Program-made: the position numbers and the translations under genes
Assembly (NCBI GenBank): GCA_000438415.1
Contig: FR902233.1
Coordinates: 2,366 to 66,365 of the forward strand
Source of the DNA: Clostridium sp. CAG:628
Lineage (GTDB): Bacteria > Bacillota_I > Bacilli_A > RF39 > UBA660
Direction: 5' to 3'
DNA: 64,000 bases
The notes under the pieces: generated by a model
Database searches by the model: none
Told to the model about the DNA's origin: nothing
The model's input: only the letters and a program-made list of their open reading frames with translations
In this document: positions 30,551 through 31,854 of the stretch, piece after piece
Numbering within the stretch: position 1 is the stretch's first letter
Layout: every line of letters begins with the position of its first letter

Positions 30551-30576
30551 ATAAAAGCTCAATTAATGAGCTTTAA
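30551..30576 (-). terminator. attenuator-like hairpin between precursor peptide ORF and E1-like gene
   Basis: In minus orientation, AAAGCTCA-TTAAT-TGAGCTTT followed by a T-rich tract, immediately after the peptide stop codon. Confidence 0.4.
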
Positions 30577-30642
30577 TTAACAGTGTTGGTCTACATGACA
30601 AGAAAATTTTGCAACTGTTACTTTTTTTACGTTAATTTTCAT
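30577..30642 (-). CDS. candidate RiPP precursor peptide, 21 aa (MKINVKKVTVAKFSCHVDQHC)
   Basis: ATG at 30642 with a GGAGG RBS (8-nt spacer) and a TAA stop at 30577-30579. It sits directly upstream of the RRE-E1 gene with a hairpin between them. It is below the ORF-track size cut-off. Confidence 0.4.
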   Translation of the reverse strand: MKINVKKVTVAKFSCHVDQHC

Positions 30643-30683
30643 ATAATCTACCTCCTACCAACTGAAGTCAAATCACTTCTTGA

Positions 30684-30747
30684 AAAATATTATAGCACAC
30701 ATAACTTACTATGTAAATAGTAAGTTATTCATAGTTAGTAAGTTACG
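30684..30747 (-). promoter_or_regulatory. promoter (TTACAT-16-TGcTATAAT) overlapped by three AACTTACTA half-sites (perfect 10-4-10 palindrome 30703-30726 plus direct repeat 30736-30745)
   Basis: AACTTACTAT-GTAA-ATAGTAAGTT is centred on the -35, and TAGTAAGTTA recurs 19 bp away. The -10 shares the GTGTGCTATAAT core with the two downstream palindromic promoters. Confidence 0.4.
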
Positions 30748-30774
30748 ACAAAGAGCAAAGAAAAAACTAGTATA

Positions 30775-31854
30775 CTACTTAGTACCTAGTTTGATCTTTA
30801 AAGTCTCATTTTTACCATTTCTAATAACAGTCATTTCTATAGTTTCATCTATTTCATAACTATAAAGTCTATATCTAAATTCAGCTATATCTTTAACAGT
30901 ATCATTACCAACTTTAATAATAACATCTTCACTCTTTAATCCAGCCTTAGCCGCAGGACTATTTTTTTCAACATCAACCACTACTACACCACTATCAATA
31001 TCTTTATCAAGTCTAATACCTGCATAAGCAAGTTGCATTGTACTAGTTGCGTTTAACATACTTACACCTATATAAGGTCTACTAATTTTACCATTTTCTC
31101 TTATATTTTTTGCATAAGTTACTGCATCTTCAATAGGAATAGCAAAACCAATACCTTCAATAGTACTCTCTACTATCTTCATACTATTAATACCTATTAC
31201 TTCTCCATTAGCATTACATAATGGTCCACCACTATTACCAGGATTAATCGCAGCATCAGTTTGCATAACATTCATAATCCAGTCAGCACTAGAACCATTT
31301 ATACTTACACTAACGAGTCTATCTTTACCACTTAAAATACCTCTAGTAACAGTACCCTTAAAATTTATTCCCATAGGACTTCCCATAGTAAACACAGTAT
31401 CTCCTACTTTAGCATCTTCACTCTTTCCTAAAGATGCTACACTCTTAATAGTACCCTTATCAACCTTTAAAACAGCAATATCAGCATATTCGTCACTACC
31501 AACTATTTTAGCAGTAGTTTCACTATCATCATTATAGGTTATCTTAATAGTTTCCCCACTTTCAATAACATGATGATTAGTCATAATATATCCATTATCA
31601 TCATCAGTATCATAAACAAACCCAGTACCAGTTCCTATAAGTTCTCCCTTACTATATGTTTGTATTACAACTACAGAACCCTCAATCTTATTAACAGCCT
31701 CACTTATACCATTATCTGTAATAGTAACATTCTTCTCTTGTATAGTTTTAACAACATTACTATTAGGAAAATATTTAACAACTCCTACAATAACAAGTGC
31801 ACCAACTAAAATCCCAATTAACAAAGTAATTAAATAACTAATTTTTTGTCTCAT
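30775..31854 (-). CDS. htrA: HtrA/DegP-family serine protease with PDZ domain, membrane-anchored
   Basis: N-terminal TM helix, a trypsin-like catalytic triad context (HH..D..GNSGGPL) and a C-terminal PDZ-like region. Confidence 0.85.
   Translation of the reverse strand: MRQKISYLITLLIGILVGALVIVGVVKYFPNSNVVKTIQEKNVTITDNGISEAVNKIEGSVVVIQTYSKGELIGTGTGFVYDTDDDNGYIMTNHHVIESGETIKITYNDDSETTAKIVGSDEYADIAVLKVDKGTIKSVASLGKSEDAKVGDTVFTMGSPMGINFKGTVTRGILSGKDRLVSVSINGSSADWIMNVMQTDAAINPGNSGGPLCNANGEVIGINSMKIVESTIEGIGFAIPIEDAVTYAKNIRENGKISRPYIGVSMLNATSTMQLAYAGIRLDKDIDSGVVVVDVEKNSPAAKAGLKSEDVIIKVGNDTVKDIAEFRYRLYSYEIDETIEMTVIRNGKNETLKIKLGTK

Follow-up and report, generated by a model that had tools for sequence, protein, structure and literature searches.

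Phage CI/Cro-type operators overlap the -35 element and spacer of strong promoters, and QacR IR1 is a 28-bp operator of the TetR family that is bound by two dimers. Here we describe a site of comparable layout in a 64-kb stretch of DNA from Clostridium sp. CAG:628 (contig FR902233.1, positions 2,366 to 66,365; hereafter the window), where a perfect palindrome with a third half-site upstream, operator A, lies over the predicted promoter (P1) of a precursor-peptide operon, and a weaker copy, operator A', lies over the promoter (P2) of an operon for an acyltransferase and a hybrid histidine kinase. Similar to the repressor operators above, we find a 24-28-bp palindrome on the core promoter, an extra nearby half-site that could support cooperative binding, and reuse of the site on a second promoter; however, no regulator gene adjoins the site here, and binding is a prediction from the sequence. 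The layout also departs from the 10-11-bp footprint of a simple helix-turn-helix dimer, with hexamers that are 18 bp apart centre to centre. We regard the chances as evenly balanced that a dimeric repressor with an unlinked gene uses the site as its operator and controls the two operons together.

Regulators of peptide signalling offer further comparisons. Systems under LytTR control (AgrA/ComE/BlpR) likewise have repeated 9-10-bp elements upstream of a small-peptide promoter and again on the sensor-kinase promoter. However, LytTR sites are 9-bp direct repeats about 12 bp apart (~21-bp period) next to a weak -35, whereas here the period is 18 bp and the -35 strong; moreover, one copy here is inverted and overlaps the spacer, neither the cluster nor the scanned window proteins include a LytTR gene product, and the kinase is a HisKA hybrid, not of the HPK10 type. 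Boxes of the RNPP family (PlcR, Rgg, ComR, TprA) are similar in being palindromic and in lying on or close to the -35 in front of a gene for a short peptide, and some members of that family (TprA, PrgX) are repressors. There, however, a helix-turn-helix-TPR regulator adjoins the peptide gene, and none does so in the window or in ~30 related loci.

Operator A and its promoter comprise the following features.

30701..30728, (-) strand: operator A, ATAACTTACTAT-TTAC-ATAGTAAGTTAT on the coding strand, at about -47 to -20, centre at -33.5 relative to the inferred start
30736..30745, (-) strand: auxiliary third half-site TAACTTACTA, at about -64 to -55, oriented like the promoter-distal arm
30689..30717, (-) strand: promoter P1 from a consensus scan, with -35 TTTACA (30717..30712), a 17-nt spacer, -16 TGTG (30699..30696) and -10 TATAAT (30694..30689)
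30757..30799, (-) strand: terminator-like hairpin with a run of six U (U6) after htrA, just upstream of operator A (-16.6 kcal/mol, z -3.0)

A repeat search returned operator A as the perfect inverted repeat ATAACTTACTAT-GTAA-ATAGTAAGTTAT (30701-30728), whose two 12-nt arms (30701-30712 and 30717-30728) are 100% complementary across a 4-nt gap, together with a direct repeat of TAGTAAGTTA at 30718-30727 and 30736-30745 (start-to-start spacing 18 bp). AACTTA hexamers recur with this 18-bp period at 30744, 30726 and, inverted, 30708, in the order forward, forward, reverse. The initial annotation of this DNA had proposed a three-half-site operator here, and the search bears out that element, with its inverted repeat and third copy, whereas each arm is two bases longer than had been given and the spacing is 18, not 19 bp. 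It had further placed the site over the -35 of the precursor-peptide promoter, and in fact the P1 -35 hexamer TTTACA, a match to consensus at 5/6 positions, is the exact centre of the palindrome, with all three half-site copies within 56 bp upstream of the -10. P1 itself has 11/12 matches plus the TG of an extended -10 region (TGTGcTATAAT), which makes it the top-ranked promoter predicted by the consensus scan of the coding strand between 22 and 33 kb, and transcription would start near 30681. By prediction, P1 drives the 21-amino-acid peptide, an MccB-like adenylyltransferase and an ABC-F protein, and the hairpin behind htrA (30775-31854; all relevant genes are on the (-) strand) shields P1 from htrA read-through. 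Along that strand, the order of elements in the intergenic DNA behind htrA is the hairpin with its U6, ~15 variable bases, GTAACTTACTAAC, which is the auxiliary half-site (30745..30736), the palindrome and GTGTGCTATAAT. Operator A thus combines dyad symmetry and overlap with a core promoter, the promoter being predicted, and it recurs on a second one.

27909..27932, (-) strand: operator A', AACTTATAAT-TTGC-ATAATAAGTT, arms 9/10 complementary, centre at -33.5 of P2
27894..27923, (-) strand: promoter P2, TTTGCA - 18 nt - TGTGcTATAAT, which precedes the acyltransferase and kinase genes

Operator A' was the one further window site matching the full pattern with up to 3 mismatches, where 0.08 were expected, and the core AACTTA-N12-TAAGTT occurs exactly twice in the window against 0.09 expected, a count that 0/100 shuffles reach. 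It lies where the ABC-F and acyltransferase genes meet, in the space between them, and its centre is the P2 -35 TTTGCA, which is the same -33.5 position that operator A takes on P1. The motif had initially been set apart from that of the downstream genes and the absence of additional sites anywhere named among what would overturn its role; it is, however, not private to the peptide promoter, as P2 carries a degenerate copy at the same position (27909-27932). When the five half-sites are compared AACTTA is constant in 5/5 and TAACTTA in 4/5, with the inner 4 bases varying. Between P1 and P2, arm position 7 shows a symmetric double change from C:G to T:A (by our own estimate, chance p ~0.035), and the difference at arm position 8 breaks the dyad symmetry. 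The palindrome alone is weak evidence, because 22% of dinucleotide shuffles of this window (25% G+C) contain a perfect inverted repeat with arms of at least 12 and a spacer of at most 8, at a mean of 0.24 per shuffled window; the sole other such perfect repeat in the window is a hairpin behind the lysyl-tRNA synthetase gene. A third exact half-site copy within +/-45 bp has p ~0.005 by our own arithmetic (3.39 copies expected per window), and combined, the palindrome, the third copy and the second site exceed chance.

We propose that a symmetric DNA-binding protein, encoded outside the cluster, would bind the palindrome and the extra half-site, with a dimer as the binding unit and the upstream half-site possibly recruiting a second dimer or subunit. 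Since the site covers the -35 and the spacer, the bound protein would block RNA polymerase and repress the peptide/MccB-like/ABC-F operon, the extra half-site could extend this block to where the alpha subunit normally makes contact, and the weaker copy A' would place the acyltransferase/hybrid-kinase operon under the same control. We infer the binding, the repression and a regulator encoded elsewhere alike. A repressor is favoured because the promoters are near-consensus with an extended -10, because the module has plain consensus promoters in other lineages, and because the site sits on top of the -35. In fact, motif-less relatives show, at the corresponding position, a consensus promoter of the form TTGACA-17-TGTATAAT, and for that reason the operator looks like negative control that was added to a constitutive promoter.

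A survey of relatives places the motif in one lineage. Among sister strains (ThiF 92-97% identical: L001, L079, L081-L088 and metagenome contigs), P1 and P2 are essentially unchanged. In the next relative, L002 (ThiF 78% identical), the motif was not found at P1, and the equivalent of P2 retains its -35, its ribosome-binding site and the hairpin described below as element B, with the A' arms decayed. Nor was the motif found at the peptide promoters of L208 (68%) and L210 (63%), and the peptide promoters of more distant relatives are without it, showing plain consensus promoters or unrelated palindromes instead. Across ~610 kb of related loci, AACTTA-N12-TAAGTT is limited to the same two promoters of the sister strains and one stray match. 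A motif that is present on both promoters of one lineage, absent or decayed in the next relative, and lost from P3 (a third promoter of the same cluster) would fit a lineage-specific regulator better than chance.

Several observations weigh against a repressor operator. Long A+T-rich palindromes are common in a genome of 25% G+C. P1, P2 and P3 have identical GTGTGCTATAAT, with P3 matching P2 at 82%, and are probably paralogous promoters, and common descent of P1 and P2 may partly explain the motif they have in common. The left arm of A' extends over the final ABC-F codons (Asn-Leu-stop), and in strain L180 the A' hexamer is mutated to TAAATT from TAAGTT. Conservation among sister strains adds no independent support: they are 98-100% identical over the entire cassette (block 30746-27865), synonymous sites included, and we therefore dropped phylogenetic footprinting in these strains. 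The flanks of this block, htrA among them, are ~85% identical (htrA protein 77%), and the near-identical stretch coincides exactly with a single transcription unit that runs from the auxiliary half-site (30746) to the terminator and the next start codon (27865), which suggests a recent exchange or sweep of the cassette. The search for a regulator gave the same direction of evidence. As the initial annotation had stated, no DNA-binding domain is found in the cluster proteins by Pfam and NCBIfam, and no transcription factor was recognised in the 64-kb window of ~55 genes (29 proteins scanned by Pfam, the remainder read by eye), where ParB (49200-50093) is the sole recognisable DNA-binding protein; its known parS site is unrelated to the AACTTA motif. 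No third site was found in the window, and a search of JGI (Joint Genome Institute) metagenomes with the exact pattern gave none among the matches listed, which comprise ~100 chance palindromes and, from this species, sites of the P1 type in 11 contigs and of the P2 type in another 11. Neither do the neighbourhoods of ~30 related loci contain a recurrent regulator, with Xre or MarR-like genes in single loci only, and viral contigs that were scanned for the motif yielded none. In an informal comparison we know of no convincing likeness to the sites of FapR, Fur/PerR, CodY or LexA, or to cre, CIRCE, parS, the PlcR box or the cop box. Separately, a 148-amino-acid open reading frame at 3117-3563 appears Bro-N-like by eye, with no Pfam match.

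The same observations bear on whether the site has any regulatory role at all, or is an A+T-rich palindrome that arose by chance or through small duplications near the promoter, was copied to P2 along with a duplicated promoter and persists only as the cassette is young. That an equally long palindrome appears in 22% of the shuffles, that AACTTAYWAT-N4-ATWRTAAGTT returned ~100 unrelated A+T-rich palindromes among the metagenome matches listed, that the operator has no fewer variable positions than expected from the remainder of the near-identical block, that P1, P2 and P3 are of shared ancestry, and that all more distant relatives lack the motif would all agree with this. It is harder to reconcile with the third copy (p ~0.005), with a dyad at P2 that was kept, including the symmetric double substitution, while P3 and the L002 orthologue lost the arms but kept the promoter, and with the equal centring of both sites on their promoters. 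On balance we consider an absence of function rather unlikely.

The main rival to the repressor is an activator, namely a response regulator that would end the phosphorelay of the hybrid kinase and exert positive feedback on the peptide and sensor operons, as in agr/com/blp. In keeping with such a circuit, the signal promoter P1 and the sensor promoter P2 carry the same motif, two of its three copies stand as direct repeats ahead of the -35, and the kinase has ~7 transmembrane segments like peptide sensors, with a sensor whose divergence tracks peptide residue 20 and the neighbouring enzyme gene. Typical activator sites, however, are found at -41.5 or further upstream, and with its centre at -33.5 on top of the -35 a protein bound here would collide with the sigma factor. 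Moreover, the promoters are near-consensus with an extended -10 and should need no activator. The period is 18 bp against the 21 bp of LytTR sites, and genes with a LytTR, OmpR or other output domain were recognised neither in the cluster nor among the scanned window proteins. The receiver (REC) domain of the kinase (residues 478-567) is itself marginal, just under the Pfam cut-off (30.1 vs 30.2 bits), and may be a pseudo-receiver, given IIHSSN in the usual position of the acidic pair. ThiF-type peptide clusters are often under quorum-sensing control (PMC12250964), which speaks for the activator, and taking both sides together we regard it as improbable.

Recombination sites of the FRT or dif kind at the ends of a mobile cassette would also present two inverted arms, a short spacer and a third arm. 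FRT has such a three-arm layout; the left limit of the block of near-identity falls precisely on the third half-site (30746) and its other limit shortly past P2 (27865), and the gene after P2 is swapped between strains. But no recombinase was recognised in the window, part of which was scanned with Pfam and the remainder read by eye, and the 4-bp spacer (6 bp at most) is short for tyrosine recombinases, whose FRT/dif-like spacers are 6-8 bp. The right boundary, moreover, lies ~45-65 bp past A', after the ribosome-binding site and start codon and off the palindrome, and because the block is one transcription unit, homologous recombination or a selective sweep explains it equally well, which makes such sites very unlikely. 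A function as an RNA or DNA hairpin, such as an htrA terminator or RNA processing site, is scarcely credible, as the P1 region would fold if transcribed (-13.9 kcal/mol, z -2.75) but lies upstream of the P1 start and downstream of the separate U6 hairpin expected to end htrA transcripts, no U-run stands behind operator A as it would in an intrinsic terminator, no stable fold is predicted for the copy at P2 (-3.4 kcal/mol, z 0), and an Rfam scan of 24.4-31 kb gave no match.

Beside A' lies a second palindromic element, element B, which recurs at the third promoter, P3.

27883..27908, (-) strand: element B, AAAGTGTGCTATAATAAGTACACTTT, terminator-like hairpin at the end of the P1 operon; contains the P2 -10
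24521-24546, (-) strand: second copy of element B, at P3
24521..24560, (-) strand: promoter P3, TTGAAA - 17 nt - TGTGcTATAAT, paralogue of P2 with decayed A' arms; drives a 643-amino-acid orphan
22571-24502, (-) strand: the 643-amino-acid orphan gene, driven by P3

The initial annotation had described element B as a 28-bp palindrome on the downstream genes, a different motif that would suggest a two-tier regulator arrangement. Element B is, however, better read as a terminator that closes the upstream operon and overlaps the promoter behind it than as a site for a second regulator. On the coding strand its RNA would form a 10-bp stem including one G.U pair, a 6-nt loop and then directly a U-run, as in an intrinsic terminator, with folding energies of -11.8 kcal/mol (z -3.7) and -15.5 kcal/mol (z -6.1) for its two copies. 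Since the G.U pair would be functional on one strand only, we argue for a role at the RNA level. The loop is the -10 box of the next promoter, and element B holds the -16 TGTG and -10 box common to P1, P2 and P3. It is perfectly kept after the ABC-F gene of L002, where the following acyltransferase is only 34% identical. With the two-tier arrangement and its distinct downstream motif set aside and the operator-like site and missing regulator retained, the initial interpretation as a whole is partly supported.

P3 retained all features of P2 except the A' arms. P3 and its orphan gene (22571-24560) are inserted between the kinase gene and a diacylglycerol-kinase gene and are missing from several sister strains. 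The orphan has no domains and 22 homologues, one of which (34% identical) lies between obg and ruvA in another genome; we considered it as the regulator and rejected it, as it lacks domains, has few homologues and is missing from several operator-bearing strains. A palindrome in Gottfriedia (L038) with the outer arms of element B proved to be merely a terminator after an unrelated precursor peptide. Behind the ABC-F gene of the 68% relative (L208/L209, 8620-8675), the hairpin/-10 element has its 12-bp core in the opposite orientation with respect to the -35 TTTGCA, and the contig ends within this inverted core, which could be an assembly fold-back or a real inversion.

The operon downstream of P1 has the following members.

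30577..30642, (-) strand: precursor peptide MKINVKKVTVAKFSCHVDQHC, 21 amino acids, the open reading frame directly upstream of the enzyme gene
30551..30577, (-) strand: attenuator-like hairpin AAAGCTCA-TTAAT-TGAGCTTT between the peptide and enzyme genes, from repeat search and folding
29509..30531, (-) strand: MccB-like ThiF-family adenylyltransferase, 340 amino acids, with an N-terminal peptide-clamp region, from domain and structure matches
27924..29585, (-) strand: ABC-F ATPase, best NCBIfam match 'ribosomal protection-like ABC-F'

The best solved relative of the 340-amino-acid enzyme is MccB (PDB 3h5n, E 1.7e-35, over residues 61-264). The ABC-F protein scores 360 bits against a cut-off of 380 for its best NCBIfam match, and its translation probably begins at 29519, so that the gene overlaps the last bases of the ThiF gene. 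Peptide, enzyme and ABC-F genes (27924-30642) form an overlapping three-gene module in ~30 loci of metagenome-assembled genomes from uncultured gut Bacilli and 'Tenericutes' (L001-L029, L033, L208 and L210), usually with a consensus promoter, a hairpin in the 5' untranslated region and a hairpin after the peptide gene, the last of these being at the same place in nearly all related loci. Nearly all of them also keep the peptide C-terminus KF[AS]CHVDQ[NH]C. As in microcin C (mccA-mccB), the gene of a very short precursor precedes that of an MccB-like enzyme, with a hairpin between the two. However, the precursor here ends in Cys (CHVDQ[NH]C) and not in the Asn needed for the N-P bond, no exporter and no MccD/E/F is present in the module, and among related loci the ABC-F gene is always coupled to that of the MccB-like enzyme. 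Described ThiF-type classes comprise microcin C, pantocin A, the GRC thiolactone, enterofaecin and several motif types (a 2025 review, PMC12250964, and a 2024 mining paper, PMC11256085), and none of the classes in these two papers matches CHVDQNC with an ABC-F gene; a full-text literature search for the CHVDQ[NH]C motif likewise gave no match. Knowing the switch of this module would help to decide between an antibiotic with self-immunity and a signal.

Two variants of the neighbourhood stand apart from this organisation. In L080 (627-1514) the enzyme gene (ThiF 88% identical) is preceded by a 295-amino-acid open reading frame with no known domain, and neither peptide gene nor operator was found before it. 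In 10 distant loci (e.g. L011 7565-8194 and L014 5997-6635) the module adjoins a member of a ~212-amino-acid family with a methyltransferase-like LEVGCGxIP motif, mostly divergent and upstream of the peptide gene, whereas in L016/L017 it follows ABC-F; neither Pfam nor NCBIfam matches this family, and the window cluster lacks it.

The operon downstream of P2 encodes two proteins.

26740..27864, (-) strand: PlsC-type acyltransferase, 374 amino acids (profile match); sister strains have a long-chain-fatty-acid-CoA-ligase-like gene instead
24925..26682, (-) strand: hybrid histidine kinase with ~7 transmembrane segments and the domain order HisKA-HATPase-REC (profile search)

As had been noted initially, the hybrid kinase lacks an output domain by both Pfam and NCBIfam. 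When peptide residue 20 (codon 30583-30585) is compared among strains, the loci fall into two types: a His20 type with the PlsC-type acyltransferase and one kinase sensor (the window, L132, L180 and L184), and an Asn20 type with the long-chain-acyl-CoA-ligase-like gene and a different sensor (L001 and L081-L087). Between the types the kinase is 16-30% identical over residues 1-200 and 90-98% identical over residues 250-585. These two peptide/sensor types are reminiscent of agr/com pherotypes, although only two haplotypes are seen here. In L002 the kinase is followed by a 243-amino-acid protein (14738-15469) with an Hpt-like N-terminus (AHSLKSETRYLG) and a C-terminal receiver, which by its predicted domains is a phosphorelay component without a DNA-binding output.

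The operator itself is routine, and its value is as a handle on the surrounding peptide system, which is the more interesting part: one cis element ties the peptide/MccB-like/ABC-F operon to the lipid-enzyme/hybrid-kinase operon, and a 70-bp fragment with defined hexamers is a concrete probe for finding the regulator. More speculatively, AACTTA-N12-TAAGTT could serve in cis in a so far undescribed circuit of peptide signalling in uncultured, probably RF39-like gut Bacilli, a proposal that we hold to be doubtful. In such a circuit the 21-amino-acid peptide would be modified by the MccB-type enzyme, for example by C-terminal activation or cyclisation, with at least two peptide types, His20 and Asn20, paired with the acyltransferase or the acyl-CoA-ligase-like gene, and would be sensed by the seven-transmembrane hybrid kinase through its hypervariable sensor half, while an unlinked regulator would act on the signal and sensor promoters. 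A more radical variant would make a protein of the cassette, e.g. the winged-helix peptide clamp of the dimeric enzyme, the regulator itself.

Elsewhere in the window, as judged from translations only, there is, 20 kb away from the cluster, a second AMP-binding ligase next to an acyltransferase-like gene (7716-10263, (-) strand), and 57008-63704 ((-) strand) encodes four paralogous secreted proteins of ~190-205 amino acids and two large DTDGDG-type repeat proteins.

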